A stretch of 32,000 nucleotides of DNA from Geobacter metallireducens GS-15 (GTDB taxonomy: Bacteria > Desulfobacterota > Desulfuromonadia > Geobacterales > Geobacteraceae). Positions within the stretch are counted from its first letter, which is position 1, and each line of letters starts with the position of its first letter. The notes beneath the pieces were generated by a model. The model was given only the letters and a program-made list of their open reading frames with translations, did no database searches and was not told the origin of the DNA. Both the position numbers and the translations under genes were made by a program. Below are positions 4,081-18,413 of the stretch, piece after piece. Where the stretch lies: the NCBI RefSeq assembly GCF_000012925.1, contig NC_007517.1, forward strand, positions 2,490,001-2,522,000, written 5' to 3'.

Positions 4081-4872
4081 CTATTTGACGTTCTTCGTCT
4101 CGCCACCAAGGAACCGTGCAAAGGCACCCTGCATGTACTGCGTGGCAAAGACCGTCGGCATGAATCGTTCTGCCTCCTGATATCCTTCAACTGCTTTCCG
4201 GTTCAGCAGTGTCTTGATAAAGGTCTTGGCAACATGGCTTTTTTCAGCGATACGCTCGGCAAGCTCTTCGCATCGGGGAAGGAGTTCGTTGTCTTCATAG
4301 ACATCCACCACAATACCGAGACGCTGCGCTTCATCGGCATCCAGTTCTTTTGCCGAGAAACAGAGGTAGGCGGCCACATTCTTACCGTACTTTTCCAGAC
4401 CGCGGGTAATACACCAGGCAGGAATGGCGCCATGATTTATTTCCTTGAGGGCAAACTTGGCGCTCTTGGCGGCAAAGACCATATCGCAGCAACCGGAAAT
4501 TTCGAAGCCAAAACCGAATGCCGCACCATTCACGGCTGCAATGATCGGCGTTTCAGCAAGTTCAATGGCCTTGAATGGCTCAAAACAGAGCTTGATGAAA
4601 TCAAAACCAGCTTCAACCTTGCCAACAGTTGCAAACTGCTCCACATCGGCCCCTGCGGAAAACACCGGATAATCGGTCCCTTTTTTCGGATGCTTGAAGG
4701 TCTGGCCCGTCAGGACGATGCAGCCTACCTTCTTGTCCGCGTCAAGTTCCCGCACTGCAGCAGCCAGTTCCTTGAAAATCTGGGCATTGGCGGCATTGAA
4801 CTTGTCCGGACGGTTGAAGGTAATGATGCCGTAGTTTTTCTTCCTTTCAACCTTGAAAACGGTATACTTCAT
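4081..4872 (-). CDS. enoyl-CoA hydratase/isomerase (crotonase) family protein
   Basis: GIITFNRPDKFNA N-terminus. Both canonical catalytic Glu positions are present (GFGFEIS and ALKEINHGAIP). AAGGAGA RBS. Confidence 0.9.
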   Translation of the reverse strand: MKYTVFKVERKKNYGIITFNRPDKFNAANAQIFKELAAAVRELDADKKVGCIVLTGQTFKHPKKGTDYPVFSAGADVEQFATVGKVEAGFDFIKLCFEPFKAIELAETPIIAAVNGAAFGFGFEISGCCDMVFAAKSAKFALKEINHGAIPAWCITRGLEKYGKNVAAYLCFSAKELDADEAQRLGIVVDVYEDNELLPRCEELAERIAEKSHVAKTFIKTLLNRKAVEGYQEAERFMPTVFATQYMQGAFARFLGGETKNVK

Positions 4873-4945: not shown

Positions 4946-6745
4946 CTACACTGAATCCCATTCCTCTTGAAGGATATCGGGAAGCTTGACGGCCCGTTCC
5001 TTTCCACTCATGAAATCGAGCCGGCGAATCCCCTTGGGATCGATCTTGCCGATCAATTCCTGTTCCTGCTTGGTCGGAGGCTCCGTGACCGGGCAATCGG
5101 CCGCGATTTCCACGGGAAAGCCGGTGTTTTTGACCACATCTTCCGGTGTAACCCCTTTATGAAGGGAGACGATCTTCCACTTGCCACGTTCCCTCATTTC
5201 CATGACGCACAGGTTGGTCACCACGATCATCGGTCCCGGCTGCAGTCCCTGGGCCAACCGCTCTTCATCGTTCAGGTAGACCCGCGTGCCAGTTATATAA
5301 TTCACCTTGGGGACAAAAATCTGTTTCGAGTGGTTGGGAAAGTAGGCAACCGACTTGCGGTGCAGTCCGAAGACGACCGGCGCACCGGCCCCGCCGGGGA
5401 GCCTGAGTCCCCTGGCATTGAATTCGCCGGTTGGCTTCCCCTCGGCATCCATGACCGGCATCGGCAGCCAGGAGATGTTGATGTCGCCGTTGGCATCCAT
5501 CTGGGCGCTCGACACCGCCTCCACGTCGCCGGTACCCCGGAAATGGAGGGCCTCGATGCATTCGGTCATGGACCAGAGTCCCGCCGAGTTGCCGATACAG
5601 GCCGCTTCCGATGTATGGAACCCCATCTGGAACGGATAGGCATCCACGCCGCTGTAGCCGACCATGAACGAGTTGGGGGCCGTGGTCAGTTTTGCCAGGT
5701 TGTAGGCAGCGTATGCCAGGGGGGTGAATGAGCCGAGCACCGTCGTATCCCCGTCGTCAATGGTACGGGCCAGGCTGGTGACCATCTGGTCGGCGACCTC
5801 ATACTCTTCGGCTTTATCGTTAACCAGCTTCTGGGGCCATTCAACACGGGTTGTCTGCCGTGCGAGGGATTGCAGCTTTTTCTTGGCGGCATCGCCGCCA
5901 GCCTTCGCCCAATACTCGTCCTCATTCTTTCCGACCGTTGCGGCGATATACTCTTTGGCCGTTTTCGGATTGAGCCCCTGCACATCCCGGTTCATCTGAA
6001 GGAGGTGGGCAGAGTAATACGGTATGGAACTACAGGGACTGGCACCGAAGGGGACATGAATGACCATGTCGACATCGGTGCGGAAGAGCTTGGTGGCAGT
6101 TTTGTCAGCCCGGATCTGGTCTCCCGAGACGATCTCCTCTACCGTGACTATCGTCTTCTTTGCGGCCATGGCCATGTCAAGGTCGGAGGCCGATGTGCCG
6201 AAGATCTGGACGTTACCCTGCTCGTCGGCGCGCTGGGCATGGATCACCGCCACATCAGGCACAATAGCCTGGATGGCGGTCAGCTCCTTGCCGGTAAAGG
6301 GACAGGCGACGGTCTTGTATAGCTCCGGCGCCTCCTTGACGATATCCGACCCCTTGGGCCCCATGAAGGGAGCAAAGGGGAGGCCAAGACGCGCGGCTTC
6401 AAGACCCTTAATCATGCTGCACCCTTCGATCTCGGTCAATTTTACCAACTGTCTCTCAGCGACGCGTCGGAAATTGGCCGGAAGCCCGAAAAACTCGAGG
6501 CTGAGGAAACTGAAGACCAGGTGATCGACGCACCCGGCACCCAGCAGCCATTCCATCTCCCAACCGCCGACAATCGACATTACCTTGAGGTTGGTTATAT
6601 TCTGACGGGCTATCTCACGGATAACAGCCATCGGCTTGTTGCAGCTCCAGCCACCGCCAAAAGCGACAAACGCCCCTGGTGTGATGAATCTGCCGATGTC
6701 AGAAAGCTGCCCGATCTTTGATGTAAGTTCTATCTTTTTGCCCAT
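4946..6745 (-). CDS. family-I CoA-transferase with fused alpha and beta subunits (glutaconate/3-oxoacid CoA-transferase-like)
   Basis: 599 aa from the ATG at 6745 (GGAGA RBS). This start avoids overlap with the upstream SDR that ends at 6807. The N-terminal half looks like an A-subunit (FVAFGGGWSCNKPMAVIREIA). The C-terminal half looks like a B-subunit (TTVLGSFTPLAYAAYNLAK...). Confidence 0.85.
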   Translation of the reverse strand: MGKKIELTSKIGQLSDIGRFITPGAFVAFGGGWSCNKPMAVIREIARQNITNLKVMSIVGGWEMEWLLGAGCVDHLVFSFLSLEFFGLPANFRRVAERQLVKLTEIEGCSMIKGLEAARLGLPFAPFMGPKGSDIVKEAPELYKTVACPFTGKELTAIQAIVPDVAVIHAQRADEQGNVQIFGTSASDLDMAMAAKKTIVTVEEIVSGDQIRADKTATKLFRTDVDMVIHVPFGASPCSSIPYYSAHLLQMNRDVQGLNPKTAKEYIAATVGKNEDEYWAKAGGDAAKKKLQSLARQTTRVEWPQKLVNDKAEEYEVADQMVTSLARTIDDGDTTVLGSFTPLAYAAYNLAKLTTAPNSFMVGYSGVDAYPFQMGFHTSEAACIGNSAGLWSMTECIEALHFRGTGDVEAVSSAQMDANGDINISWLPMPVMDAEGKPTGEFNARGLRLPGGAGAPVVFGLHRKSVAYFPNHSKQIFVPKVNYITGTRVYLNDEERLAQGLQPGPMIVVTNLCVMEMRERGKWKIVSLHKGVTPEDVVKNTGFPVEIAADCPVTEPPTKQEQELIGKIDPKGIRRLDFMSGKERAVKLPDILQEEWDSV

Positions 6746-6806: not shown

Positions 6807-7571
6807 CTAGCCGGCCGACCACCCTCCATCCAGCGGCAGTACCGCACCGGTCATGAAACTCGATGCATTGGACGAAAGGTAGATAACGAGACCGACCAGT
6901 TCCTCCACATTCCCCCAGCGGTTCACCGGTGTCTTGGACATGATCAGCTTGGTGGTCGCCTCATCCTCCATGGCATCCTTGTTGATGTCAGTGGAAAAGT
7001 AGGATGGTGCGATGGCATTCACCGTAATACCGCGTGTCGCCCATTCCTGCGCCAGACATTTGGTCATGGCGTTGATCCCCCCCTTGGAAGCGGCGTAGGG
7101 AACCATGTAGGGAAGCGGATAACTCCCCATGGCCGAGGAGATATTGATCACTCGCCCGGCTTTTGCCTTGAACATGTGCTGGCCGACGATCTGGGTACAG
7201 AGGAAATAACCCTTGAGGTTAACATCCAGGATCTGGTCCCACTGCTCATCGGTCCATTTCAGGAACGGCACCGTCCACCCCTGTCCCGCGTTGTTGACGA
7301 GGATGTCGATCTTGCCGAACGCCTCCATCGTCTTTGCCGCCAGGTTTTCAATCGATCCCCGGTCGAGCATGTCAGTAGCGACGGCAAGCGATTTGCGCCC
7401 CAGAGCTCTTATCTCCTCGGCCACTGCATCCAGGTCGGCCTGGGTACGACTGGCAACGACCACGTCGGCGCCCGCCTGAGCGAGCCCCAGGGCAATGGCT
7501 TTGCCGAAACCACGGCTCCCTCCGGTTACTATGGCAACCTTCCCCTCCAGATTGAATATGTCCAGACTCAT
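6807..7571 (-). CDS. short-chain dehydrogenase/reductase (SDR)
   Basis: KVAIVTGGSRGFGKAIA (TGxxxGxG), NNAG, and a Ser...YAASK catalytic triad. Confidence 0.9.
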   Translation of the reverse strand: MSLDIFNLEGKVAIVTGGSRGFGKAIALGLAQAGADVVVASRTQADLDAVAEEIRALGRKSLAVATDMLDRGSIENLAAKTMEAFGKIDILVNNAGQGWTVPFLKWTDEQWDQILDVNLKGYFLCTQIVGQHMFKAKAGRVINISSAMGSYPLPYMVPYAASKGGINAMTKCLAQEWATRGITVNAIAPSYFSTDINKDAMEDEATTKLIMSKTPVNRWGNVEELVGLVIYLSSNASSFMTGAVLPLDGGWSAG

Positions 7572-7642: not shown

Positions 7643-8440
7643 TTATGCTCCCGTGAAATTCGCCTTCCGTTTTTCCAGAAATGCGGCGGTCCCTTCCTTT
7701 GAATCCTGCGTTGCAAAGGTCTTGGCAAACTGGGTCAACTCCTTGTCAATGCCGGATAAAAGATCGTGGTCCAGCACCAGGTTGACACAATCCTTCGCCC
7801 ATTTAACCATCAGGGGGCTTTTCCCCATGATCGCCTTGGCAAGCCGTGCAACCGCAGCATCGAGTCCTTCAGGCTCGACAACCTCATTCACCAACCCCCA
7901 TTTGCAGGCATCGGCCGCATTAATCGGCTTTCCGGTCAGGATCATCTCCATCGCCTTTGCCTTACCGACGATCCTGGGAAGCCGCTGGCTCGCCCCTCCG
8001 CCGGTGATGATCCCAAGGTTGATTTCAGGCTGGGCAAATGACGCCCGCGTCGTACATATCCGGAAATCGCACCCCAGCGCTATCTCGCTCCCCATCCCCC
8101 AAGCCATGCCATCTACTGCCGCAATGACCGGCAGAGGAATTTTTTCCAGCGACGTTGGGCTGAAATGATGGTCAAGGATCTCCTTAACCTTTTCCCAGCC
8201 CTGCTCCGCAGAGATCTTTGACCAGGAATTGAGCATGTTTATGTCCGCGCCGGCGAGGAAGTTTTCACCACTCCCTTTAAGAACGAGAACACGCAGTGAA
8301 GTATCGGATCCGACATCCGCCACGGCAGCCTTCAACTCCTGAGACATCTGCTCGCTGTAGGCGTTGAATACCTTGGGACGGTTAAACGTTATGGTGGCAA
8401 TGCCATCTTTCTTGTCCAGAATGATAGTCTCAAAAGACAT
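7643..8440 (-). CDS. enoyl-CoA hydratase (crotonase family)
   Basis: IATITFNRPKVFNA N-terminus. Both catalytic Glu positions are present (GMGSEIAL, AQPEINLG). I prefer the ATG at 8440 with an AAAGGTGA RBS over the GTG at 8449. Confidence 0.9.
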   Translation of the reverse strand: MSFETIILDKKDGIATITFNRPKVFNAYSEQMSQELKAAVADVGSDTSLRVLVLKGSGENFLAGADINMLNSWSKISAEQGWEKVKEILDHHFSPTSLEKIPLPVIAAVDGMAWGMGSEIALGCDFRICTTRASFAQPEINLGIITGGGASQRLPRIVGKAKAMEMILTGKPINAADACKWGLVNEVVEPEGLDAAVARLAKAIMGKSPLMVKWAKDCVNLVLDHDLLSGIDKELTQFAKTFATQDSKEGTAAFLEKRKANFTGA

Positions 8441-8485
8441 GGGATTCACCTTTCGACCAGTTGTTTTGTTTATGCTGCTACGGCA

Positions 8486-8893
8486 CTAGCGCAAGCTGAC
8501 CTTGCCCACATTTTCCTTGATGTATTCGGCAACGGTTTCTCCCGGCAGGCCGGAAATGAAGCATTTGTGAATGCCGATCTTCTCCAGTTCTTCGAAATCC
8601 ACCTCGGGGATAATGCCACCGATTATCACCAGGACATCAGTCATACCGTTTGCCTTGAGAGCAGGGATCAGCTTCTTGGCAATCAGCATGTGTCCGCTCG
8701 TCATGATGCTGAGCGCAATCACGTTAACATCTTCCTGGATCGCCGCCGTGACGATGTCGTCAACCGTGCCGAAGCGGAAATAGACCACCTCCATGCCCGC
8801 ATCCCGCAGTTCTCGCGCGATCAGCTTGCTAGCGCGACCATGGACGTCGATTTTTTTCTTTGCCAATAGTACTTTTATGTGTTGATTGGACAT
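8486..8893 (-). CDS. cobalamin-binding small subunit of an acyl-CoA mutase
   Basis: KVLLAKKKIDVHGRASKLIARELRDAGMEVVY matches the LAKxGxDGHDRG B12-binding motif. Asp and His are conserved (DVHGRA). IQEDVNVIALS and VIIGGIIP motifs are also present. I chose the ATG at 8893 behind a GAGGTG RBS. Confidence 0.9.
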   Translation of the reverse strand: MSNQHIKVLLAKKKIDVHGRASKLIARELRDAGMEVVYFRFGTVDDIVTAAIQEDVNVIALSIMTSGHMLIAKKLIPALKANGMTDVLVIIGGIIPEVDFEELEKIGIHKCFISGLPGETVAEYIKENVGKVSLR

Positions 8894-8971
8894 ACCATTC
8901 ACCTCGAATTATCAATCTTCATTGAAGTAGTAGACTCTGCGCGCACAATCCCTGTTACCGACAGAACCAGC

Positions 8972-10642
8972 CTATTCCGTCACTACCCAACCGAACACAT
9001 CCCGCATCACCTGGCACATCTCGCCGTTCGTAGCCCCCTTCAGCGCAGCTTCCACCAGAACCGGCATCAATTCACCCTGGCCATCCCGCAGTTCCAGACA
9101 GGCATTCTTCACCGTTGCCAGGGCCTTGTCCACATCCCCCTGGTTCCGTTTGGCCTTGAACGCCTTCAACCTTTCCAGTGCCTTCACTTCCAGAGCGGTG
9201 TCAACCTTGAATGGTTCATAGTTGTCTTTTCTGTCCATGACATACTTGTTAAGGCCCACCACCGGTTGTTTGCCGCTCTTGATCTTGACCTTGGTTGCAT
9301 AGGCGCTGTTGTCGATGGCCCGCTTGATGCTGCCGTCAGCGAGACCTTGCCTATAGCCTCCCTGCTCTTCCAGTTCGTTGTATATCTTCCAGGCAGCCTG
9401 CTCCATCTGATCGGTTAATGCTTCAATGTAATAGGACCCTGCCAGGGGATCTGCCACATCCGGCAACCCGCTCTCCCACATCATGATCTGCTGGGAGCGT
9501 AAGGCTGTCCGGTGCGACAGTTCCGTCGGGATGCCAATCGTTTCGTCGTAGGAGCAGGAATGTATCGACTGTACCCCCCCCATGACTGCCGCCATGAGTT
9601 GCATGGTGATGCGCGCCGTGTTGTTGAGAGGTTGCTGGGCGGTCAGCACATTGCCACTGGTATGGACATGCACCCGGGCATGCATGCACTGGGGCTTGGT
9701 GCAGCCGGCGTCTCTGGTTATTTTCGCCCACATCCGCCGATGGGCCCGCAGCTTGGCGACCTCCTCGAAGAAATTCATCTGGATGCCGATCTGGAAACCC
9801 ATGCGCCCAACAAAACTGTCCGGTTCAAGCCCACGCTCCTTACAGGCATCGATAATCGACTTGCCCCAGGCCAAACCATACGCCAGTTCCTGGACCGGCG
9901 TGGCACCAGCCTCTGACAATCCGTACATGAACAGGTTGGCCGTGTTCCAGGCGGGGATATTGTTGGAACAGTACCTGATAAGGTCGGTCATAAGCAGATA
10001 GCCATTTTTCGGCTCCCATGAAGGGATGTCCTGAACAGCGGTCCGCGGATACCAGTTCATGGAGTTGCCATGAAGAACCCCGGGTTCCTCGCCGCGCCGG
10101 ATTGCGGCTGCCGTTATCAGTGCCAGGGCGGGGAGACAGTTATCGCCGGTTATCAGCGAAAAATTAGTCGTGTTGAGATCCCACCCCTGGATAAGGTCAT
10201 CATAGTCTTCCACGGTACAGAGGGTGACGCCGCATTGCCCGACGTTGCCTTCGGCCTCGGGATGGTCGGAATCGATGCCGTACATGGACGGGATATCCAG
10301 TACCATGTTGAACACCTTGTTGCCGAAATACCCCTCCATCCCTTGGGCAACCAGGGTCTCCATCTTCTTCCTGGTTTCCTCGACTGTCCCGTAACCGAAA
10401 ACCATCTGCTGCATCCAGGGGGTCAGGGCGTAACCGTCGGGGTAGAGGCCGCGGGTATAGGGGTAAACCCCGGGCATGGTTGCCAGGTCAAGCCCCTGGA
10501 TGTCTTCCTGGGTATAGACCGTTTTCAGGGGGATGCCCGACAGGTTTTCCCGTTGCTTCAGCTTGGCAACGTATTTTGCCCGGGCTTTCTCCCAATCCTC
10601 TTTCACCTTGGAAAAATTTTCATTAGCAACAGGACTACTCAT
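8972..10642 (-). CDS. acyl-CoA mutase large (substrate-binding TIM-barrel) subunit, methylmalonyl-CoA mutase family, divergent
   Basis: Family motifs YPYTRG, GIDSDHP, SEAGATPVQELAY, NFFEEVAKLRAHRRMWAKI, TAQQPLNNTARIT and DPLAGSYYIEALT. There is no C-terminal B12 domain, which is supplied by the separate 8486..8893 gene. GGAGGAG RBS. Confidence 0.9.
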   Translation of the reverse strand: MSSPVANENFSKVKEDWEKARAKYVAKLKQRENLSGIPLKTVYTQEDIQGLDLATMPGVYPYTRGLYPDGYALTPWMQQMVFGYGTVEETRKKMETLVAQGMEGYFGNKVFNMVLDIPSMYGIDSDHPEAEGNVGQCGVTLCTVEDYDDLIQGWDLNTTNFSLITGDNCLPALALITAAAIRRGEEPGVLHGNSMNWYPRTAVQDIPSWEPKNGYLLMTDLIRYCSNNIPAWNTANLFMYGLSEAGATPVQELAYGLAWGKSIIDACKERGLEPDSFVGRMGFQIGIQMNFFEEVAKLRAHRRMWAKITRDAGCTKPQCMHARVHVHTSGNVLTAQQPLNNTARITMQLMAAVMGGVQSIHSCSYDETIGIPTELSHRTALRSQQIMMWESGLPDVADPLAGSYYIEALTDQMEQAAWKIYNELEEQGGYRQGLADGSIKRAIDNSAYATKVKIKSGKQPVVGLNKYVMDRKDNYEPFKVDTALEVKALERLKAFKAKRNQGDVDKALATVKNACLELRDGQGELMPVLVEAALKGATNGEMCQVMRDVFGWVVTE

Positions 10643-10722
10643 ATTTACTCCTCCGTTTCTATTCGTATGGGGCGGGAACCCGTGGCGTCGGCATGAAGCT
10701 TAATTCCAGGATATTTTGTCGA

Positions 10723-11715
10723 CTATCTGTTGTTCCGTGGCGTCGTGCCATTGTCTGCAAGGATTCTCGCTTTTTCAACGAGATCAACAACCTGTTCAGA
10801 TGCACTGTATGGATCAAGTTTCAGATTCTCTATTTTGTTGATCCACTTCTGCAGATCCCTATCTGTTTTCAATGTTTCCAAGAATCTGTCCCTCACCTGC
10901 TGTGTAAGAATGTCCAGAAATTGCCTGCTTCTTCGTTTTTGACATATGCCGGTAAAAATATTCCGTTCCGTTATAAACATCAGGTGCTCAAAAATCACCG
11001 TTACAAGGTCTTCTACTCCATCTCCCTTCAACGCAGACACTTTGGCAATCGGTACTCCCCATTGATCGGCCTTGATGTTTGCACACTGAAACTCTTTCCC
11101 CCCATAGGTGACCGGCATCTCGAAACTTAAATCGTTTACCGCTCCATCCGCACCCGGCTGATCAGACTTATTCACCACCAGGATATCGCCGATCTCCAGG
11201 ATTCCGGCCTTCATCGCCTGGAGGGAATCCCCGTATCCCGGAACCAGGGTCAGAACCACCGTATGGGCAATCTTGGCAATATCCATCTCCACCTGACCGA
11301 CCCCCACGGTTTCAACAATGATGACCTCCTTGCCAAAGGCATCGAGCACATCGACCGCATCGTTGATCACTGGTGCCAACCCACCGCTGGCGCCTCGAGC
11401 TGAGAAAGAACGAATAAATACCCCGTTGTCGCCTGAGAACTCTGTCATCCTGGCACGGTCGCCAAGGATTGCTCCGTCGCTAAACGGGCTGGATGGATCG
11501 ACTGCCAGAACACCTACTGTTTTTCCGCGCCTTCTTATCTCCCTGACGAGTGCTGCAACCAGGCAACTTTTCCCTGCCCCCGGTGGTCCGGTTATCCCGA
11601 TGACATGAGCTCTGCCGCATTTGCAGTAGAGACCTTTCAACTCCTCGATCCCTTCCGGATTCCGCCGTTCGAGCAGGGAGATCAGCCGGGAAATGGATCT
11701 GTCCAGGGTTTTCAA
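10723..11715 (-). CDS. meaB: MeaB/ArgK-type G-protein metallochaperone for B12 mutases
   Basis: P-loop GITGPPGAGKS, VLAVDPSSPFSDGAILGDRARM and VVNKSD (NKxD). The start codon is TTG, as the sequence reads TTGAAAACC. It overlaps the upstream stop in a TTGA junction. Confidence 0.85.
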   Translation of the reverse strand: MKTLDRSISRLISLLERRNPEGIEELKGLYCKCGRAHVIGITGPPGAGKSCLVAALVREIRRRGKTVGVLAVDPSSPFSDGAILGDRARMTEFSGDNGVFIRSFSARGASGGLAPVINDAVDVLDAFGKEVIIVETVGVGQVEMDIAKIAHTVVLTLVPGYGDSLQAMKAGILEIGDILVVNKSDQPGADGAVNDLSFEMPVTYGGKEFQCANIKADQWGVPIAKVSALKGDGVEDLVTVIFEHLMFITERNIFTGICQKRRSRQFLDILTQQVRDRFLETLKTDRDLQKWINKIENLKLDPYSASEQVVDLVEKARILADNGTTPRNNR

Positions 11716-13559
11716 AACGATTTGTCCACCGCCTCCCAGGCCGAGACGTCGCCCCAGGCAAGAGCGGCTATTTTGCCGTCGGTGACCGGCAGGATATTGC
11801 CGATAAAGAACTGGGCGCTCCTGATTTTTCCGTCCAGAAAGGCAGCGTCCGTGTTCTTCTGAATGAATGACTTCCTGCTCTCCGCATCTTCAAGCTTCTT
11901 CTTGAGAAACAGTTCCTCGAGTTGCCCGTGCGCAACCACTGCGCCCCAAAGGAGAAACCACGCCACAACCACATCCCCGAAGGCCTCCAGGAAAGGGGTC
12001 GCCTTGAGATAGGAATAGTGCACTCCGTTTGCTTCGGCCCCTTCGGCAAGGTGGGCCGGTATACCCGCCAGAGCTGATTTCGTGCGCTCGAACTGCTCGA
12101 TATGCTTCTTCAAGCCGGGCAGTTCTGCTGCACGGTTTACCATCCCATCCATATCCTTCAGGAATTCCGCAAAGACCTGCCCCTTTTTCATCCTGATCTT
12201 ACGCAAAGCCAGGTCCATTGCCTGTATTCCCGTTGTCCCCTCGAAAATGCAGGCAACTTTGGAATCCCGCATGAACTGTTCGACCGGATACTCCTGGGTA
12301 TAACCGTATCCCCCATATACCTGGATGGCGTGGGAAGCGAATTCCACCCCCTTCTCCGTGGGGTAAGCCTTGCAGAGCGGTATCAGCAAATCGACAATCC
12401 CCTGCAGCTTCTTTTTCTCTTCCTCGTTGTCGACGACTGCCATCCGGTCCATGGCGTAGCCGCAGTAATAGAGCATCGCCCGCATCCCCTGAATGTACGA
12501 TTTCATCATGAGGAGCGTACGACGAATATCAGGATGGTGAATAATCGGAACCTGTCCGGAATCCGGATCAGCGATACTCTGACCCTGCCGTCTCTCCAGG
12601 GCGTACCTCAGTGCATGCATGTAGGAAACCGAGCAGGTCCCCTGGCCCCACATCCCCACCTCGAGCCGCGAGGCATTCATCATGTGGAACATGATCTTGA
12701 TGCCATCCTGCTCCTTGCCAAGGAGGTAGCCAGTGCAGCACCCCTTTTCGCCAAACGACATGGTAGTGGTCGGCGATGCCTTGATCCCCATCTTGTGTTC
12801 GATGCCAATACACTTGACGTCGTTCGCCTCCCCTAGAGATCCGTCAGAATTGATCTTGAATTTGGGAACAATAAAGATCGACAACCCCTTGGTCCCCGCC
12901 GGATCCCCTTCAATCCTGGCTAGAACCATATGTACCGTGTTCTCACACACGTCGCTGTCGCCGTTGGTAATGAATATCTTCTGACCAACCAGCGAATAGG
13001 TACCATCCGTGTTTCTCGTCGCCTTGAACTCGATGTTCCCCACGTCCGAACCCGCCGCAGGTTCCGTCAGGGCCATCGTGCCGAGCCACTCACCCCCGTA
13101 CATCTTGTGCAGATACTGACTCTTCTGCTGTTCCGAGCCGAAAAGTTCAATGAGTTTGGCGGCATCGTGAGTAAGGTTGACGTAGCACATGAACGGGAAG
13201 TTGGCGGCAAAGAACATCTCATGGGCCGCATTCTTGATGACATGGGGGAGTCCCTGGCCGCCAAGGGTCTCCTCTTCGCAAGCAGTGAGCCAGCCGTTCT
13301 CAACGAAGCTCTGGTAAGCCTCTGCCGTACCGGGAACCGAATAAACTTCTCCCCCCTCAAAGCGGGCACCGACCTTGTCCCCTTCGATATTCAGCGGGAA
13401 CAACACCTTTTCGGCAAACTTGCTCGCCTCTGAAAGCAGCAATCCCAGGACTTTCTCGTTCCATCCGGAAAAACGGTCGGACGCACACAGGTCCTGGACT
13501 TTTAACTGCTCAAAAAGGGCGAATTTCACATCACGTTCATCGACTAACAGATTTGCCAT
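11712..13559 (-). CDS. long-form acyl-CoA dehydrogenase (about 615 aa, with N- and C-terminal extensions, FadE/DmdC-like)
   Basis: LTEPAAGSDVG, QKIFITNGD and VYGGYGYTQEYPVEQFMRDSKVACIFEGTTGIQ. I chose the ATG at 13559 (MANLLVDERD). The track start at 13664 would overlap the upstream crotonase gene. Confidence 0.9.
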   Translation of the reverse strand: MANLLVDERDVKFALFEQLKVQDLCASDRFSGWNEKVLGLLLSEASKFAEKVLFPLNIEGDKVGARFEGGEVYSVPGTAEAYQSFVENGWLTACEEETLGGQGLPHVIKNAAHEMFFAANFPFMCYVNLTHDAAKLIELFGSEQQKSQYLHKMYGGEWLGTMALTEPAAGSDVGNIEFKATRNTDGTYSLVGQKIFITNGDSDVCENTVHMVLARIEGDPAGTKGLSIFIVPKFKINSDGSLGEANDVKCIGIEHKMGIKASPTTTMSFGEKGCCTGYLLGKEQDGIKIMFHMMNASRLEVGMWGQGTCSVSYMHALRYALERRQGQSIADPDSGQVPIIHHPDIRRTLLMMKSYIQGMRAMLYYCGYAMDRMAVVDNEEEKKKLQGIVDLLIPLCKAYPTEKGVEFASHAIQVYGGYGYTQEYPVEQFMRDSKVACIFEGTTGIQAMDLALRKIRMKKGQVFAEFLKDMDGMVNRAAELPGLKKHIEQFERTKSALAGIPAHLAEGAEANGVHYSYLKATPFLEAFGDVVVAWFLLWGAVVAHGQLEELFLKKKLEDAESRKSFIQKNTDAAFLDGKIRSAQFFIGNILPVTDGKIAALAWGDVSAWEAVDKSF

Positions 13560-13602: not shown

Positions 13603-14391
13603 CTAACCCTTGTTGAAGACCGGCTTGCGCTTTTCCAGGAAGGCCAGAGTCCCTTCCTGTGCATCTGCTGTCAGGAGGATTTTGCAGAACTGGTCCTGCT
13701 CGTAATCGATCCCCCCACGGAGAGGTAGATCACCCCCTTCGTAGACCAGCTTCTTGCAGATATCCAGCACTACCGCTCCCTTGTCGATCAGCCTGCCGGC
13801 AAACGCGTTGACCGCCTCCATCAACTCATCGCGGGGGACCACCTGGTTGACAAGGCCAATCCTGTAGGCCTCCTGGGCATCAATGGGGTCGCCGGTGGAA
13901 ATCATCTCCAGCGCCCTGGTCGGCCCGACAAGTTCCCGCAGACGCTGGCTCCCCCCTGCACCGGGAATGATGCCGAGCTTTACCTCGGGCTGGCCGAATT
14001 GGGCTTTTTCTGCTGCAATCCGAAAATCACAGGCCATGGCAAGCTCGCATCCCATGCCAAAGGCAAGACCGTTTACTGCAGCAATGGTCGGCTTGGGACA
14101 ATCCTCTATCATATTCGGATTGACCAGTTGCCTGAGATCCTCCTTGATCTTTGCGGCATTCCCCAACTTGGTCCAGCCATTGACCATATTGATGTCCGCA
14201 CCGGCCATGAACGCCTTGCCGGCACCGGTCAATACGATTGCCCTCACCGATTTGTCCGCTACAAGCTCGTTGAATCCCGTTATAATATCTGCGGCAAGGG
14301 TCCGGTTGTATGCATTCAATACCTCTGGCCGATTAAAAGTCAGAACTCCAACTGCTCCGTTACGCTCCAGCATGATTGCTTCATAACTCAT
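13603..14391 (-). CDS. enoyl-CoA hydratase (crotonase family)
   Basis: VGVLTFNRPEVLNA N-terminus. Both catalytic Glu positions are present (GMGCELAM, GQPEVKLG). Confidence 0.9.
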   Translation of the reverse strand: MSYEAIMLERNGAVGVLTFNRPEVLNAYNRTLAADIITGFNELVADKSVRAIVLTGAGKAFMAGADINMVNGWTKLGNAAKIKEDLRQLVNPNMIEDCPKPTIAAVNGLAFGMGCELAMACDFRIAAEKAQFGQPEVKLGIIPGAGGSQRLRELVGPTRALEMISTGDPIDAQEAYRIGLVNQVVPRDELMEAVNAFAGRLIDKGAVVLDICKKLVYEGGDLPLRGGIDYEQDQFCKILLTADAQEGTLAFLEKRKPVFNKG

Positions 14392-14491: not shown

Positions 14492-15670
14492 TCAGATCAT
14501 CTCTATGACCGTTGCCATTGCCGGTCCACCACCGACACAGAGGGAAGCAACCCCGTATCTACCTTGCCGCCGTTTCATCTCTTCCAGCATGGTCACGATG
14601 ATCCGTATCCCCGTGCACCCAACGGGGTGCCCCAGGGCAATCCCCGACCCGTTCGCATTCACACGGGAGAGGTCGATGTTCAGCTCACGATTCACGGCCA
14701 GAAATTGGGCCGCAAAGGCTTCGTTGATTTCAAAGTAGTCGATGTCTTTCATCTGCAGGTCGGCATATTTCAAAGCCTTGGGAATGGCATAGGCCGGCCC
14801 GATTCCCATGATCTCCGGTGCAACACCGAAGGAAGCCGTAGCCCGTATCCGGGCAATGGGGCTCACCCCAAGCTCCCTGGCCCGCCTTGCTGTCATGAGC
14901 ACAAGCGCGGCAGCACCATCGTTGATGCTCGAAGCGTTGCCCGCCGTGACCGTGCCATCTTTTTTGAATGCCGGTCTCAGGGCGGCCAGCTTCTCCCGGC
15001 TCATGTCCGCCCGGGGATGCTCATCGGTGTCGATGACGATGGTCCCCTTGCGACTCTTCACTTCCACCGGCACGATTTCAGCCCTGAATTTCCCTGACTC
15101 CGCGGCCGCAACGGCCCGCTGATGGCTCAACAAAGCCAGATCATCCTGTTCCTCGCGGGAAATGCCGTATTTCTCCGCCAGGTTCTCAGCGGTTATCCCC
15201 ATGTGCGTACCGCTGAAAGCATCGATCAACGCATCGTGCAGAAGATGATCCTCGATAGAATCTGAACCGAGGCGCAGGCCCTGACGGGCATTGAGGAGCA
15301 GATAGGGAGCCTGGGACATGCTCTCCATCCCTACAGCAACACCTACAGACGTCTTCCCAAGGAGTATCTGCTGCGAGGCGATTTCCAGTGCCCGCATGGC
15401 TGACCCGCACAACTGCTCCACCGTAGTGGCTGCCCCCTCGAGAGGTATTCCCGTCTTGAGCTGGACCTGGCGCGCCGGGTTCCCCTTGGCTCCTGCCTTG
15501 TAGATCATCCCCCCGACAACCTCTTCCACCAGTTCCGGACCAATCCCGGCCTTTTTCAAGGCCCCCTGAACGGCAGCAATGCCCAGATCCACCGCGGACA
15601 CATCCTTGAGTGCCCCCATGAAATCTCCAATCGCCGTACGGGCTGCTCCGACTATGACTGCTTCTTCCAT
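14492..15670 (-). CDS. acetyl-CoA C-acetyltransferase (thiolase II)
   Basis: [24 protein letters not shown] (nucleophilic Cys), [15 protein letters not shown] and [10 protein letters not shown] chose the ATG at 15670, which has a GGAGG RBS. Confidence 0.9.
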
Positions 15671-15727
15671 GAAATCGGCCTCCAGTTTGCGTAGTTTCAC
15701 TGCTGCATAAAATCAAGAACTATTTCA

Positions 15728-16049: not shown

Positions 16050-17501
16050 CTATTTTTCTTCCTTTATGCCGGCCAGTTTCTTGGCAAGCTTTACCTTATG
16101 GCCGAGATTTGCCTGGCGGAGGATCATGACTCTCTGCGCCTGGGGAGAGCCGGCACCATGCATGCTTTCCACCAAAGCCGTGCCGCCCGTCATATTTTCA
16201 ACGAGCCGGGCCATCCGCATGCGCTCTTCAGTGGGAGCTTCGTCCACCCCCCGGAAATACTTCTCTACATATTTGCCGATCTCATCGTGGTGCAGATCCT
16301 TCTCCGAAGGCATGGTTGCCATGCAGCCACCGGAAATATCGTGGGAAAGGCGTGCAATCTCATAGATGAAACGGGTCACGTTCTGCTTAACCGTATTGGC
16401 CAGCAGGGGATTGACGAAATAGGCCCCTGACGGCGTGGGAGCACCCTCACAGGAGCAGGCGATGGAACCGCAATAAAGGGTCTCGGTGAGGTGGACCATC
16501 TCCACGATCTTGTCACGCACGTGGGAAGCCTTGGCTGCTCCGTTGTACTCTGCCATAGCGGTAGTTGCGCCGATGATCACATCGCTCACGCCTGCCTTGC
16601 ATCCACCATAGTTCTGTCGATGATAGCTCGCGAAACGCTCAACCAGCAGCCCCGCATACTTGTACTCTCCGCACATGAAGACGCGTTCCCACGGGACGAA
16701 GACATCTTCAAGTATGGTCAAAGCCTCGCCTCCGACAGTTCCATACTCAGCATTACCCTGATCAAGGTCTCCCTTTTCCAGACGGCGTGTATCGTTGGTT
16801 TGACGACCAAAGATATGGATGACACCGGGGGAATCCGTGGGGAGAGCACAGGCAACCGCATAGTCGCCGTCCTCCTCCCCCATGGCCATGGTTGGCATAA
16901 TCAGCATTTCATGGGAATTGACAATTCCGGTCTGGTGAACCTTTGCCCCACGAATGACTATCCCCTTGTCATTCTTTGCCACCACGTGCACGAACATGTC
17001 CGGGTCTTTCTGTTTTGCCGGAGGCAGCCCCCTGTCCCCCTTGGGATCGGTCATTGCTCCCGCCACCATCAGGTCATTGTCCTGTATATATTCGAGGTAA
17101 CGCCTAAAACGCTGGTGATAGTCGGTACCAAGCTCCTGGTCCATCTCATAGGTTACCGTATAGTTAGCGTTCAGGGCATCCCACCCCACACAGCGCTGGT
17201 AGCAACTTCCCGTCTTCCCTGCAATAAGCCGCAACATCTTCACCTTTTTTATGAGATCGTCGGTGCTCTGGTGGATATGGGTGAAGCGGCTGATTTTACT
17301 CCCCGTCAGGTGTGAGGTGGCTGTGACGAGCGCTTCCGTGGTCGGATCATGGGCCAAGTCGAACGTCAATGCAGCCGCATTGATATGGGGCTGGAACAAT
17401 GGGTGATCTACTATGCTGTCAATCTTCTCTCCAAAGGCATAGACTTTGATATTGAGCGCCCGAAGGCTTTCCCGGTAGGAATTCCCATCTCTTAGTGCCA
17501 T
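16050..17501 (-). CDS. abfD: 4-hydroxybutyryl-CoA dehydratase / vinylacetyl-CoA delta-isomerase family enzyme
   Basis: Collinear with my recollection of Clostridium aminobutyricum AbfD over the whole length (YRESLRALNIKVYAFGEKI, HQSTDDLIKKVKMLRL, MTDPKGDRGLPPAKQKDPD, ESMHGAGSPQAQR). The FeS ligand positions are conserved (GSCYQRCVG, YHRQNYGGCKAG). GGAGGT RBS. Confidence 0.9.
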   Translation of the reverse strand: MALRDGNSYRESLRALNIKVYAFGEKIDSIVDHPLFQPHINAAALTFDLAHDPTTEALVTATSHLTGSKISRFTHIHQSTDDLIKKVKMLRLIAGKTGSCYQRCVGWDALNANYTVTYEMDQELGTDYHQRFRRYLEYIQDNDLMVAGAMTDPKGDRGLPPAKQKDPDMFVHVVAKNDKGIVIRGAKVHQTGIVNSHEMLIMPTMAMGEEDGDYAVACALPTDSPGVIHIFGRQTNDTRRLEKGDLDQGNAEYGTVGGEALTILEDVFVPWERVFMCGEYKYAGLLVERFASYHRQNYGGCKAGVSDVIIGATTAMAEYNGAAKASHVRDKIVEMVHLTETLYCGSIACSCEGAPTPSGAYFVNPLLANTVKQNVTRFIYEIARLSHDISGGCMATMPSEKDLHHDEIGKYVEKYFRGVDEAPTEERMRMARLVENMTGGTALVESMHGAGSPQAQRVMILRQANLGHKVKLAKKLAGIKEEK

Positions 17502-17843: not shown

Positions 17844-18413
17844 CTACTTACCTCTGGTCAAAATGGCAAAGAAGTGCTCTGCAAGGTCTTCTATGCTTAA
17901 CCGGTCGTCCTCCTTGTACCAGATGGTGGCATAGTTACACATGCCCAGGATCGCCTTCGCGGTAATGGAAGGCTTTAACCCTCTGAACAAACCATGCCCC
18001 TCCTTCTGGATTTGTTCGATAATCTTCACTACCTGCTCTTCATAGAGCCGTTGTTGATTCTGGTAAATAACTTTGTTTTTACCTGTCAGGTATTTGGTAT
18101 CCCTTAGATTGATCGTTAACACATCCCTCCTTTCAACCACCAGTTTCATATGGAAGTGAAGGAATTTGTGCAGTTTTTCAACCCCATCCATATCGGGATC
18201 TTTAAGTACCGGTTTGAAAGCATCAATATATCCGGGGAGGAAATTTTCCAGTATGGCAAGAAGAATCCCTTCTTTGCTTTTGAAATAATGGATCACCGTA
18301 CTTTTGGAAATACCGACTTTGGAGGCAAGCATGCCGATGGATGCACCGGGATACCCCTCAATATTCATCAATTCGATCGCAGCCGTAATCAGTTTGTCGT
18401 AGGTATTTTCCAT
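17844..18413 (-). CDS. TetR/AcrR-family transcriptional regulator
   Basis: 189 aa. N-terminal HTH (GYPGASIGMLASKVGISKSTVIHYFKSKEGIL) and a helical C-terminal ligand domain. The gene is visibly AT-richer than its neighbours. Confidence 0.9.
   Translation of the reverse strand: MENTYDKLITAAIELMNIEGYPGASIGMLASKVGISKSTVIHYFKSKEGILLAILENFLPGYIDAFKPVLKDPDMDGVEKLHKFLHFHMKLVVERRDVLTINLRDTKYLTGKNKVIYQNQQRLYEEQVVKIIEQIQKEGHGLFRGLKPSITAKAILGMCNYATIWYKEDDRLSIEDLAEHFFAILTRGK

Follow-up and report, generated by a model that had tools for sequence, protein, structure and literature searches.

A predicted B12-dependent acyl-CoA mutase of a discrete clade with a remodelled active-site signature in a beta-oxidation-like gene row of Geobacter metallireducens GS-15

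The window, i.e., the whole stretch of DNA analysed, comprises 32,000 nt of Geobacter metallireducens GS-15 (NC_007517.1, positions 2,490,001-2,522,000), and all coordinates are relative to it (Table 1). The genes of the mutase operon are co-directional with short gaps, in an arrangement conserved across related loci. The three open reading frames which an earlier note on this DNA had described as large subunit, small subunit and MeaB are indeed present at the given coordinates, on the minus strand. For the small subunit, an ATG at 8893 yields 135 aa (the length of the homologues) and a GTG at 8902 yields 138 aa. The TTG start of the MeaB gene overlaps the stop of the upstream acyl-CoA dehydrogenase (ACAD) gene, whose own probable start is an internal ATG (around 615 aa; homologues 616 aa).

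Table 1. Features of the gene row (window-relative positions).
Feature	Position	Strand	Basis
OYE + pyridine-nucleotide-disulfide oxidoreductase; FadH/BaiCD-like enoyl- or dienoyl-CoA reductase candidate	779..2845	(-)	
3-Hydroxyacyl/3-hydroxybutyryl-CoA dehydrogenase (Hbd-like)	3076..3948	(-)	
ECH_a, divergent crotonase-family protein	4081..4872	(-)	
Fused glutaconate-CoA-transferase-like alpha/beta protein (Gct-like), 599 aa from internal ATG	4946..6745	(-)	
SDR oxidoreductase (SDR_a), conserved partner	6807..7571	(-)	
ECH_b, short-chain crotonase-type enoyl-CoA hydratase, both catalytic Glu present	7643..8440	(-)	
B12-binding small subunit, 135 aa	8486..8893	(-)	Pfam/NCBIfam
Acyl-CoA mutase large subunit (substrate-binding TIM-barrel), 556 aa	8972..10642	(-)	Pfam/NCBIfam, alignments
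MeaB-type G-protein chaperone, 330 aa	10723..11715	(-)	NCBIfam
Long ACAD with Acyl-CoA_dh_C domain	11712..13559	(-)	
ECH_c, crotonase-type enoyl-CoA hydratase	13603..14391	(-)	
Acetyl-CoA C-acyltransferase (thiolase)	14492..15700	(-)	
4-Hydroxybutyryl-CoA dehydratase/vinylacetyl-CoA isomerase (AbfD)	16050..17501	(-)	
TetR-family regulator, head of gene row	17844..18413	(-)	

The assignment to the MCM family with a separate B12 subunit and MeaB, as given in the earlier note, is borne out by the profile scores: the large subunit reaches 534 bits with MM_CoA_mutase and 444 bits with TIGR00641 (cut-off 304), the small subunit is B12-binding (TIGR00640, 105 bits, cut-off 57), and MeaB, with its P-loop GPPGAGKS and NKSD motifs intact, scores 306 bits with TIGR00750 (cut-off 241). 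The large subunit, however, stays below every NCBIfam equivalog cut-off (MCM, 402 vs 876 bits; IcmF, 175 vs 1500 bits). Among solved structures, HCM (316 bits) and MCM (297-315 bits) are about equally close to it, whereas IcmF is more distant (143 bits, match limited to residues 227-528). Its predicted model is of moderate confidence (pLDDT 67.5), poor around the active-site loops, and has the mutase fold (TMq 0.75 to 4REQ, 1REQ and 4R3U). The small subunit carries the motifs DVHGRA (DxHxxG-type, His-on), SIMTSGH and GGIIP, and its best PDB match is 2YXB, an archaeal-type split MCM. The variant DVHGRA, pointed out in the earlier note, is found in the window and in one of 38 related loci but is no trait of the clade, the consensus of which is DVHGRG, i.e., the canonical DxHxxG.

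Concerning the active site, the large subunit was aligned pairwise to solved structures with HMMER and, with MAFFT L-INS-i, together with HcmA, human MCM, Propionibacterium shermanii MutB (PsMutB) and 153 relatives; residue counts in the printed alignment correspond to literature numbering (chain index + 1). All three reference motifs that the earlier note had used for P. shermanii are identical to 1REQ/1E1C chain A, and both alignments pair Val81 with PsMutB Tyr89, Gln204 with Arg207 and Gly241 with His244, as it had proposed; the last column is also fixed by the H244A mutant 1E1C, with Ala at this position. Tyr, Arg and His are thus not conserved in a rigorous alignment, and a placement inside a characterised clade was likewise not found. 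An insertion of 6 residues (around 107-112, inside GYFGNKVFNM), also noticed earlier, is seen against all three references in the pairwise alignments. Beyond these, Met195 stands at PsMutB Gln197, His327 at PsMutB Gln330 and Val114 at HcmA Asp117. His244 is a proposed general acid in MCM, and its loss could mean changed chemistry, beyond changed specificity alone.

Among 121 sequences of 64-94% identity (120 homologues and the query), V81, M195 and Q204 are each found in 121 and G241 in 120, and the motifs TPWMQQMVFGY, GNSMNWYPRxAVQD[IV]PSW and N[IL]FMYG[LI]SEAGATP are near-invariant. Such conservation goes well beyond chance and indicates that purifying selection maintains a functional active site. 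The joint loss of Tyr89, Gln197, Arg207 and His244 might otherwise befit a paralogue without catalytic activity or with a regulatory role, comparable to MutA, the beta chain of P. shermanii MCM; this is highly improbable in view of the invariance of the replaced motifs, the possession of an own B12 subunit with DxHxxG and an own MeaB, the lack of a second large subunit nearby among the window ORFs examined, and the scores to catalytic chains (297-316 bits) versus MutA chains (72-96 bits).

The whole clade forms one 50%-identity cluster (873 bits), whereas the next relative has 41% identity and 454 bits, in agreement with the deep branching proposed before. Nearest outside the clade are MAG proteins with other odd signatures. 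In the nearest-relative alignment of 151 sequences (147 represent clusters, the other 4 being clade members or the query), His is absent from position 244 in 81 sequences (24 Asn, 10 Asp, 9 Gly, 9 Gln, others), such that a non-canonical signature seems to be common in this unexplored part of the family; the earlier statement that His244 is normally kept thus applies to the characterised enzymes but not to these relatives. Four of the nearest cluster representatives show the ICM-type signature F/Q/Q/H. The closest sister lineages (P0121 'LMSG' of the Deltaproteobacteria and the CP070667 mutase of the Dehalococcoidia, both from MAGs, 41-42% identity) share with the clade Met at 197 (GN[ST]MNW), Gly at 244, and either the order MeaB, large subunit, small subunit, crotonase or a Gct-like neighbour, whereas their residues at 89 and 207 differ; they are equally uncharacterised. 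When 185,579 species genomes were scanned for the clade-invariant motifs, carriers were detected in 36 GTDB species, none of them an organism with a characterised HCM, RCM, ICM, PCM or ECM (no Kyrpidia, Desulfococcus biacutus, Desulfosarcina cetonica, Aquincola or Bacillus/Robertmurraya massiliosenegalensis, their presence in the collection being assumed). Like the equivalog scores, this sets the clade apart from the characterised mutases. Judged by its sequences, the clade is a discrete, deep-branching and so far unstudied branch of B12 acyl-CoA mutases, and it would be the founding uncharacterised member type with a substrate pocket rebuilt by Tyr89->Val, Gln197->Met, Arg207->Gln, His244->Gly and Gln330->His.

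MCM (P. shermanii MutB, 1REQ/4REQ; human MMUT, 2XIJ) has the CoA-ester mutase domain, the type of B12 domain and the MeaB/MMAA-type chaperone in common with the clade, whereas all five of these positions are replaced in the latter and its B12 domain is a separate polypeptide. ICM/IcmF and the related pivalyl-CoA mutases (4XC6, 5CJT-5CJW) act on neutral substrates, as is presumed for the clade, and likewise combine Gln where MCM has Arg207 with a hydrophobic residue in place of Tyr89; in the clade, however, the latter is Val instead of Phe, His244 and Gln197 are lost, and a G-protein fusion as in IcmF is absent. From Arg207->Gln and Tyr89->Val a non-carboxylated substrate is inferred, supported by HcmA, which has the same Gln in the same alignment. 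Since the active site lacks residues used by all studied members, the substrate is very probably a different fatty-acid-like CoA ester; a neutral branched acyl-CoA preferred by none of the characterised mutases is a reasonable expectation. The neighbours of P0121, the closest sister lineage (alcohol dehydrogenase, aldehyde:ferredoxin oxidoreductase, acyl-CoA ligases), may together convert a simple alcohol into an acid and are counted in favour of a neutral substrate. The genes around the sister-lineage mutases are not those of the clade and comprise an NMO-type reductase, an alcohol dehydrogenase, an aldehyde oxidoreductase and a TPP enzyme.

The operon content (ACAD, hydratases, SDR, 3-hydroxyacyl-CoA dehydrogenase, thiolase, Gct-like protein) is beta-oxidation-like. 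ECH_b is a short-chain crotonase of the ordinary kind, with 195 bits to 3-hydroxypropionyl-CoA dehydratase, and its gene lies immediately downstream of that for the small subunit at almost every proteobacterial and Thermodesulfobacteriota locus. SDR_a exhibits 66-84% identity in Thermodesulfobacteriota and Proteobacteria and around 40% in Actinomycetota, and ECH_a 69-83% in the non-actinobacterial loci. Overall, an active heteromeric AdoCbl acyl-CoA mutase of a discrete clade, with a neutral branched substrate and embedded in a beta-oxidation-like catabolic operon, is predicted with a probability of roughly 0.6. By analogy with its family, the TIM-barrel of the large subunit would bind the acyl-CoA, the small subunit would hold B12 base-off/His-on and MeaB would load and protect the cofactor; Co-C homolysis would produce a 5'-deoxyadenosyl radical that abstracts a hydrogen, whereupon the CoA-thioester group would shift to the adjacent carbon, followed by return of the hydrogen.

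The Gct-like protein accompanies the mutase across phyla, is its best-conserved non-mutase partner between them (40-45% identity) and lies even beside the sister-lineage mutase in the Dehalococcoidia genome CP070667. Like its non-transferase relatives, it possesses Tyr (window) or Tyr/Phe (clade loci) at the position of the catalytic Glu54 of GctB. Such a partner would suit a carboxylated C5-type substrate, with the carboxylate one carbon further out than in methylmalonyl-CoA: the mutase might convert 2-methylsuccinyl-CoA to glutaryl-CoA or citramalyl-C1-CoA to 3-hydroxyglutaryl-CoA, and the Gct-like protein might act as an AibAB-like decarboxylase from glutaconyl-CoA to crotonyl- or vinylacetyl-CoA, with roles for the isomerase activity of AbfD, crotonase, Hbd, thiolase and ACAD. 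An invariant new Arg200, four residues upstream of Gln204, could in principle bind the displaced carboxylate, and actinobacterial loci contain a methylmalonyl-CoA-epimerase-like gene (50 bits, below cut-off). However, both MCM carboxylate ligands are lost, a mutase reaction of this kind is not known, SDR_a is left without explanation, and an invariant Glu 15 residues downstream of the lost one (FHTSEAA/FTGAEAA) leaves the Gct-like protein possibly a real transferase, such that a C5 substrate is quite improbable.

Among known systems, HcmAB with MeaH (Aquincola tertiaricarbonis, 4R3U) provides the top PDB match of the large subunit and matches the small subunit with 88 bits. The HCM-like layout described in the earlier note is correct as to the split into large subunit, small subunit and MeaB, but it is not specific to HCM, being found in ICM and archaeal-type split MCMs (e.g., 2YXB) as well. 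A conversion of a 2-hydroxy-2-methylacyl-CoA (tertiary alcohol) to a 3-hydroxyacyl-CoA, oxidised in turn by the adjacent SDR as in HCM/RCM-type systems, would be consistent with this match, with Gln at HcmA Gln208, with an aliphatic residue at the Tyr89 position (Ile90 in HcmA, Val in the clade) and with Val114, since RcmA presumably also has Val at HcmA Asp117. TPP-dependent enzymes lie close to a clade mutase (L045) and to a sister-lineage mutase (L046). On the other hand, identity to HcmA is only around 33-38%, the clade has the 6-aa insertion, Asp117 is replaced by Val, His by Gly, Gln197 by Met and Gln330 by His, and the operons contain beta-oxidation genes, whereas an HCM-type ligase and a TPP enzyme are absent from the window and from most loci. 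The model for such a route is the acetone pathway of D. biacutus and D. cetonica (PMC7176365, PMC7888143), where RcmAB (also in Kyrpidia tusciae) resembles the clade in its split mutase, MeaB-like gene, adjacent product-oxidising SDR and occurrence in Desulfobacterales; in D. cetonica, the acetone-induced SDR beside the mutase serves as 3-hydroxybutyryl-CoA dehydrogenase (PMC7888143). The cluster order there differs, however (SDR, MeaB, mutS, mutL; PMC7888143), and organisms known for HCM or RcmAB did not appear among the carriers detected by the motif scan. An HCM/RCM-type reaction is therefore considered unlikely.

Judged by its 620 bits to 1U8V and the preserved CxxxC and H...C cluster-ligand motifs, the gene at 16050-17501 is a bona fide AbfD. 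AbfD homologues within 10 kb of the mutase are found in the window and on four further distinct contigs, in three arrangements (window, L004/L005, L015, L035, L043). In Streptosporangiales, Thermobifida and Streptomyces, the operons contain a kinase and an ACAD instead, which find their best named PDB matches in the two ACAD11 domains (212 and 185 bits), whereas other actinobacterial loci possess only a weaker kinase paralogue (59 bits to ACAD11). ACAD10/11 phosphorylate 4-hydroxyacyl-CoAs and then eliminate phosphate to give enoyl-CoA (PMC12440821, PMC11342911). The ACAD11-like kinase/eliminase thus looks like a non-orthologous replacement of AbfD for the same step, and AbfD in anaerobes and the split pair in Streptosporangiales-type carriers together point to a 4-hydroxyacyl-CoA intermediate. 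This reading is weakened by the fact that, of about 18 anaerobic loci, only about 5 have AbfD adjacent; in the gammaproteobacterial loci neither AbfD nor the kinase is situated within 10 kb of the mutase. Kinase and ACAD pairs are also frequent in actinobacterial lipid clusters generally, which counts against it.

As a tentative lead guess, the mutase may convert a 3-hydroxy-2-methylacyl-CoA to a 4-hydroxyacyl-CoA. In the simplest case, ACAD and crotonase would make 3-hydroxyisobutyryl-CoA from isobutyryl- or methacrylyl-CoA, the mutase would turn it into 4-hydroxybutyryl-CoA, AbfD or the ACAD11-like pair would form the enoyl-CoA, and hydratase, Hbd and thiolase would lead to acetyl-CoA. It counts against this scheme that the partners with the tightest conservation (SDR_a, the Gct-like protein, ECH_a) are left without a role in it.

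Smaller residues at 89 and 244 and the lack of polar ones at 197 and 244 suggest an acyl group bulkier and more hydrophobic than a C4 hydroxy acid. An ICM/PCM-like mutase might hence act, with Gln at 207 as in HcmA, on a bulky branched or alicyclic acyl-CoA (alpha-quaternary or alpha-methyl, derived from terpenoids, steroids or naphthenic acids), the thioester shift allowing a Bad/Ipd-like series of hydratase, SDR and ring- or C-C-cleaving enzyme, and then beta-oxidation, to proceed. This is a somewhat doubtful possibility, as no particular compound is indicated, the Gct-like protein shows no special closeness to IpdA (81 bits, compared with 97 bits for GctA and 84 bits for AibA), ECH_b is of the ordinary short-chain type, and AbfD and Hbd-like genes indicate C4 chemistry; furthermore, the buried acyl pocket of the family may not admit polycyclic groups. 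In its favour, the partners crotonase, SDR and crotonase resemble alicyclic CoA-ester modules, and the canonical Glu of the Gct family is lacking as in IpdAB and AibAB. The OYE reductase is BaiCD/FadH-like (378 bits, with distant homologues in 6 related loci), actinobacterial loci contain an SDR-type dienoyl-CoA-reductase-like gene after mutS (277 bits), and SnoaL-like proteins, a KstD-like FAD_binding_2 protein and an epimerase-like glyoxalase are found in several loci. The carriers include actinomycetes from soil and plant litter as well as a MAG of the Steroidobacteraceae, which equally fits such a substrate.

By its matches to PF01642 (Pfam; 534 bits, cut-off 22) and TIGR00641 (NCBIfam; 444 bits, cut-off 304), the large subunit is a member of the acyl-CoA mutase superfamily. 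It passes none of the NCBIfam equivalog models, reaching 402 bits for the MCM model NF006944 (cut-off 876) and 175 bits for that of IcmF (cut-off 1500). In a phmmer comparison with all PDB chains, HcmA (the large subunit of HCM; 4R3U) ranks first among the references with 316 bits, followed by human MCM (314 bits), MutB of Propionibacterium shermanii (PsMutB; 296-297 bits), M. tuberculosis MCM (296 bits), and IcmF (143 bits). Concerning the predicted fold, a Foldseek search finds it similar to 4REQ (MCM) and 4R3U (HCM) with a TMq of 0.75; the underlying AlphaFold2 model, built from a 21-sequence alignment, is of moderate quality (pLDDT 67.5) with low-confidence active-site loops and was used for the fold only.

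The small subunit matches TIGR00640 with 105 bits (cut-off 57), keeps the Asp and the His of DxHxxG, and possesses the SIM and GG motifs (base-off/His-on type). Its ORF call (8486-8902) amounts to 138 aa; the homologues are all 135 aa long, matching the ATG at 8893. The motif DVHGRA, singled out in the earlier note, is present in the window but constitutes a rare variant, the clade consensus being DVHGRG (by clade we mean the discrete lineage of B12 acyl-CoA mutases that contains the large subunit). MeaB matches TIGR00750 with 306 bits (cut-off 241), and its GTPase motifs (P-loop and NKSD) are intact. A meaB-type gene adjoins the mutase in most loci with sufficient flank and was undetected in about nine of them. 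Taken as predicted, the three genes encode an intact, selected acyl-CoA mutase with its cofactor subunit and chaperone. Judging from family membership, catalysis would begin with the homolysis of AdoCbl and the abstraction of a hydrogen; the thioester group would then undergo a 1,2-migration, after which the hydrogen is returned.

In MCM, Tyr89, Arg207, and His244 (P. shermanii numbering) bind the carboxylate and the thioester carbonyl, and His244 polarises the migrating thioester carbonyl together with Gln197. ICM and IcmF exhibit Phe at the position of Tyr89 and Gln at that of Arg207, with His244 kept. The roles presumed here for Tyr89, Arg207, and His244, and for Asp117 of HcmA, rest in part on the PDB titles 5REQ (Y89F) and 1E1C (H244A). 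Pairwise HMMER alignments place Val81 at Tyr89 (Ile90 of HcmA), Met195 at Gln197, Gln204 at Arg207 (Gln208 of HcmA), Gly241 at His244, His327 at Gln330, and Val114 at Asp117 of HcmA. In these pairwise alignments, the His244 column is marked independently by the Ala of the H244A mutant 1E1C. Aligning the query with three references and 153 relatives by MAFFT L-INS-i reproduces the four assignments at 89/197/207/244; the literature numbering (MCM, and HcmA via 4R3U) was recovered by residue counts in the printed alignments. The combination of Val, Gln, and Gly at Tyr89, Arg207, and His244, which the earlier note had read by eye, is thus upheld by both alignments and by homologue conservation; the P. 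shermanii motifs that it had quoted are identical to those in 1REQ/1E1C, and the insertion of about six residues that it had described ahead of the GIDSDHP-type motif recurs in the alignments as 6 residues upstream of [GY][IY]DSD[HN]P.

V81, M195, and Q204 are shared by all 121 sequences (the query and 120 homologues of 64-94% identity), and G241 by 120 of them; the neighbourhoods of these residues (TPWMQQMVFGY, GNSMNWYPRxAVQD[IV]PSW, N[IL]FMYG[LI]SEAGATP) are near-invariant in the 120 homologues. This near-invariance argues for strong purifying selection on the substrate pocket, and it is very improbable that the large subunit is a dead paralogue. The pocket has kept neither of the two carboxylate ligands, nor either of the two polar residues that align with the MCM carbonyl ligands. 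From the replacement of Arg207 by Gln, common to HcmA, and of Tyr89 by Val, we infer a neutral substrate.

The clade differs from each of the characterised enzymes: from MCM (EC 5.4.99.2) by Val81, Gln204, and Gly241 instead of Tyr89, Arg207, and His244; from ICM/IcmF (EC 5.4.99.13), with which it shares Gln at 207, by Val instead of Phe at 89 and Gly instead of His; and from HCM (EC 5.4.99.64), with Ile90/Asp117/Gln208 and His, by Val81/Val114/Gln204 and Gly241. The HCM operon includes hcl, which encodes a 2-HIBA-CoA ligase (PMC7176365); among the annotated ORFs of the window there is none for an AMP-binding ligase; ligases (type not assigned) exist in some related loci. A tertiary-alcohol substrate of the HCM/RCM kind is considered unlikely. 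The clade is probably distinct from the RcmAB-like mutase with which Desulfosarcina and Desulfococcus degrade acetone, as the gene order is different and the motif scan did not return the species in question. At the level of hosts, the 36 species with clade motifs include none known to possess RCM. As it lacks the residue combinations that define MCM, ICM, and HCM and stays below the curated equivalog cut-offs, the clade enzyme is best described as not assignable to any characterised mutase, and would represent a new specificity class within a known superfamily.

In an exhaustive HMMER search of 1.84 billion representatives, the whole clade forms a single 50%-identity cluster representative (873 bits, 67% identity), and the next relative outside it falls to 454 bits and 41% identity. 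In accordance with the separate position that the earlier note had claimed, a neighbour-joining tree, calculated from the references and the 150 top-scoring representatives of 50%-identity clusters (P0085, P0121-P0269), places the clade outside the groups with the signatures Y/Q/R/H (MCM/ECM-type; 45 representatives), F/Q/Q/H (ICM-type), and I/Q/Q/H (HCM-type), the letters being the residues aligned with PsMutB 89/197/207/244. It joins instead other unnamed lineages (L/M/S/G, L/Q/T/H, G/R/E/N, A/L/-/D, and others), which according to cluster look-ups stem from MAGs only and bear generic names. That His244 is normally kept, as the earlier note assumed, is true of the studied enzymes but not of the family: in an alignment of 151 nearest relatives (147 cluster representatives and 4 clade members or query), only 70 possess His, whereas 81 exhibit Asn, Asp, Gly, Gln, or other residues, and of the different four-residue signatures, dozens are represented by a single sequence. 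Most of the acyl-CoA mutase pockets that exist in nature appear to be uncharacterised, and the clade would be less singular than the earlier note held, namely one of many unexplored lineages with non-canonical pockets. Since roughly one in two of the closest 50%-identity clusters is non-canonical at this 'invariant' His, current knowledge covers a small part of the diversity of the family.

When 185,579 species genomes were scanned for the clade motifs, these were detected in 36 species: in MAGs of Thermodesulfobacteriota (Desulfobacterales, Desulfomonilaceae, Desulfarculaceae, Syntrophales, and others), in gammaproteobacterial MAGs (Steroidobacteraceae among them), and in Actinomycetota (Microbispora, Sphaerimonospora, Sphaerisporangium, one Streptomyces, and the cultured Thermobifida cellulosilytica TB100 and Acrocarpospora macrocephala NBRC 16266). 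No organism with a characterised HCM, RCM, ICM, PCM, or ECM is among these carriers. No plasmid-borne copies were found (best plasmid match 37.8% identity), the exact protein has no entry in the contig index, and a full-text literature search yielded no description of the clade or of a mutase with this signature.

The genes of the row (see table) are co-directional with gaps of 45-130 nt; the mutase is embedded in a beta-oxidation-like operon. The window yielded no match to a cobalamin riboswitch or to other Rfam families, and promoter and terminator scans gave no excess over shuffled controls. Several ORF calls are too long at the 5' end, homologue lengths pointing to internal ATG starts in five genes. 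In Thermodesulfobacteriota and Proteobacteria there is a recurrent block, which consists of MeaB, the large and the small subunit, a crotonase, the SDR, the Gct-like protein, and another crotonase, with partner proteins 66-86% identical and with thiolase and 3-hydroxyacyl-CoA dehydrogenase as an optional tail. Actinobacterial loci retain MeaB, both mutase subunits, and a Gct-like protein, together with two SDRs, crotonases, ACADs, Hbd, two acyl-CoA ligases, SnoaL-like proteins, an epimerase-like glyoxalase, and one or two kinases of aminoglycoside-phosphotransferase fold.

Features of the window and of related loci (flanks of clade or sister-lineage mutases, L numbers); order refers to the direction of transcription
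Order	Feature	Position	Strand	Remarks
1	TetR		minus
2	AbfD, predicted 4-hydroxybutyryl-CoA dehydratase/vinylacetyl-CoA isomerase	16050-17501	minus	620 bits to 1U8V
3	Thiolase		minus
4	Crotonase		minus
5	Long ACAD	11712-13664 (ORF call)	minus	homologue-based length ~615 aa
6	MeaB-type G-protein chaperone	10723-11715	minus	330 aa; TIGR00750
7	Acyl-CoA mutase large subunit	8972-10642	minus	556 aa; PF01642, TIGR00641
8	B12-binding small subunit	8486-8893	minus	135 aa from ATG at 8893; TIGR00640
9	Crotonase	7643-8449 (ORF call)	minus	homologue-based length 265 aa
10	SDR	6807-7571	minus
11	Fused Gct-like protein	4946-6847 (ORF call)	minus	4946-6745 with homologue-based length of 599 aa; orthologues in L001-L046
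12	Divergent crotonase	4081-4872	minus
13	Hbd-like dehydrogenase	3076-3969 (ORF call)	minus	homologue-based length 290 aa
14	FadH/BaiCD-like OYE reductase	779-2845	minus	past a 230-nt gap
	Split adenine-deaminase-like ORF 1	20765-21538	plus	N-terminal amidohydrolase part
	Split adenine-deaminase-like ORF 2	21577-22560	plus	C-terminal amidohydrolase part and Adenine_deam_C
	GAF-domain sigma-54 activator	23938-25608	minus	divergent from the following trio
	Crotonase, FAD_binding_2 (KstD/fumarate-reductase-like), SDR trio	25855-29136	plus
	Molybdopterin oxidoreductase	29197-31926	minus	909 aa; adjoining the trio
	Separate kinase and ACAD, ACAD11-like	L001 (Sphaerisporangium) 1398-2456, 4168-5370		also in L018, L019, L022, L027, L034
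	Thiamine-diphosphate-dependent enzymes	L045 1-1529; L046 16478-18370; L042 20641-21704

Glu54 of GctB (motif ESG) is the catalytic Glu of the beta subunit of class I (glutaconate-type) CoA-transferases. At this position, 15 loci encode a Gct-like protein with Tyr (GYSG); in 16 actinobacterial loci the residue is Phe (GFDA). In actinobacteria the protein consists of two subunits with 40-45% identity to the fused form. In lacking this Glu it is reminiscent of the non-transferase relatives AibAB and IpdAB, and it may constitute a new functional type beside these (decarboxylase and hydrolase, respectively). Because an invariant Glu is situated 15 residues downstream, the non-transferase reading is to be taken as a lead only. 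A displaced-carboxylate C5 substrate, with the Gct-like protein acting as an AibAB-like decarboxylase, is accorded a low probability, below that of a tertiary alcohol. The Gct-like family is tight (72-92% identity), is situated on the same contigs as the mutase, and accompanies it in different phyla. One Dehalococcoidia genome contains a copy with 72% identity immediately upstream of a mutase from a sister lineage, which possesses GNTMNW and, like the clade, Gly at 244.

Concerning the pathway, AbfD, encoded near the start of the row after TetR and ahead of the thiolase, keeps the CxxxC and H...C motifs, which we take to be cluster ligands, and its sequence marks it as a bona fide 4-hydroxybutyryl-CoA dehydratase/vinylacetyl-CoA isomerase. 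Four other, distinct contigs encode AbfD homologues (56-60% identity) no more than 10 kb from the mutase, in differing arrangements. The operons of Streptosporangiales, Thermobifida, and Streptomyces contain an ACAD and a kinase whose best named PDB matches are the two domains of ACAD11 (212 and 185 bits); a second, commoner actinobacterial kinase matches the same proteins more weakly. ACAD10/11 phosphorylate 4-hydroxyacyl-CoA and eliminate the phosphate to give 2-enoyl-CoA (PMC12440821, PMC11342911), and the actinobacterial pair can be seen as a bacterial split form of the ACAD11 system, standing where anaerobes have AbfD. Two unrelated solutions for one conversion, AbfD in anaerobes and the ACAD11-like pair in aerobes, argue for a 4-hydroxyacyl-CoA as pathway intermediate, and because both accompany the mutase, we infer that its product or substrate is tied to such a compound. 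A dienoyl-/enoyl-CoA reductase candidate likewise recurs in two unrelated forms: the OYE and pyridine-nucleotide-disulfide oxidoreductase of the window (378 bits, below cut-off; nearest to BaiCD, bilirubin reductase, and FadH types), with distant homologues near the mutase in six other loci, and, in actinobacterial loci instead, an SDR-type dienoyl-CoA-reductase-like gene (277 bits) directly after the small-subunit gene. The neighbours of the closest sister lineage (P0121, Deltaproteobacteria), i.e., an alcohol dehydrogenase, an aldehyde:ferredoxin oxidoreductase, and ligases, form a route from a neutral alcohol to acyl-CoA.

The sole mutase-type reaction giving a 4-hydroxyacyl-CoA would be that of 3-hydroxy-2-methylacyl-CoA, in the C4 case the conversion of 3-hydroxyisobutyryl-CoA to 4-hydroxybutyryl-CoA. 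We therefore propose, with a probability of roughly 0.2 to 0.25, that the clade is a natural 3-hydroxyisobutyryl-CoA/4-hydroxybutyryl-CoA mutase or, generally, a 3-hydroxy-2-methylacyl-CoA/4-hydroxyacyl-CoA mutase; the full-text literature search yielded no description of the former reaction. ACAD, one crotonase, AbfD, the second crotonase, Hbd, and thiolase would all have roles in a scheme leading from isobutyryl-CoA to two acetyl-CoA, via AbfD in anaerobes and via the ACAD11-like kinase/eliminase in aerobes. The proposal is not rated higher because the SDR (6807-7571), the Gct-like protein, and the divergent crotonase receive no roles, because AbfD is not universal, and because the smaller, more hydrophobic pocket residues suit a bulkier substrate at least as well; a bulky branched or alicyclic acyl-CoA is accorded about the same probability as a substrate. 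Also considered, and either dropped or accorded a low probability, were a leucine/isovalerate route through reversed AibAB (thermodynamically implausible), the conversion of levulinyl-CoA to 2-methylacetoacetyl-CoA (AbfD would be unneeded), and the aldehyde analogue of MCM, from 2-methyl-3-oxopropanoyl-CoA to 4-oxobutanoyl-CoA (longer than the direct scheme).

Acyl-CoA mutases carry out chemically difficult carbon-skeleton rearrangements. To our knowledge, the characterised specificities are few (MCM, ICM/IcmF, ECM, HCM, RCM, and PCM), and every newly found one has opened a pathway or biotechnological route. With its sharp boundary, strictly conserved rebuilt pocket, and conserved operon with informative neighbours, the clade is a well-defined target, for which cultured carriers are at hand (the Thermobifida and Acrocarpospora strains, and strains of Microbispora and Sphaerisporangium). 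If the proposed 3-hydroxyisobutyryl-CoA reaction is true, valine, isobutyrate, or methacrylate would be converted to two acetyl-CoA by a route not known before; such a mutase, as a hypothetical enzyme, is called for in patent routes to bio-based methacrylate. The clade also bears on mechanism, as it retains neither the His244 nor the Gln197 of MCM: under the proposed reaction, the family would be able to work without this pair, His327 perhaps standing in.

Thiamine-diphosphate-dependent enzymes are encoded within 10 kb of one clade member and of two sister-lineage mutases, and none is found in the window; these genes are reminiscent of the acetone pathway, whose thiamine-diphosphate enzyme makes 2-hydroxyisobutyryl-CoA. 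Elsewhere in the window, an adenine-deaminase-like gene is apparently split into two ORFs in different frames; the gene may have suffered a frameshift or be a pseudogene, or the sequence may contain an error. Near the related locus L046, an adenine deaminase (567 aa) is encoded intact. The gene group at 23938-31926 looks like a second, putative catabolic module.
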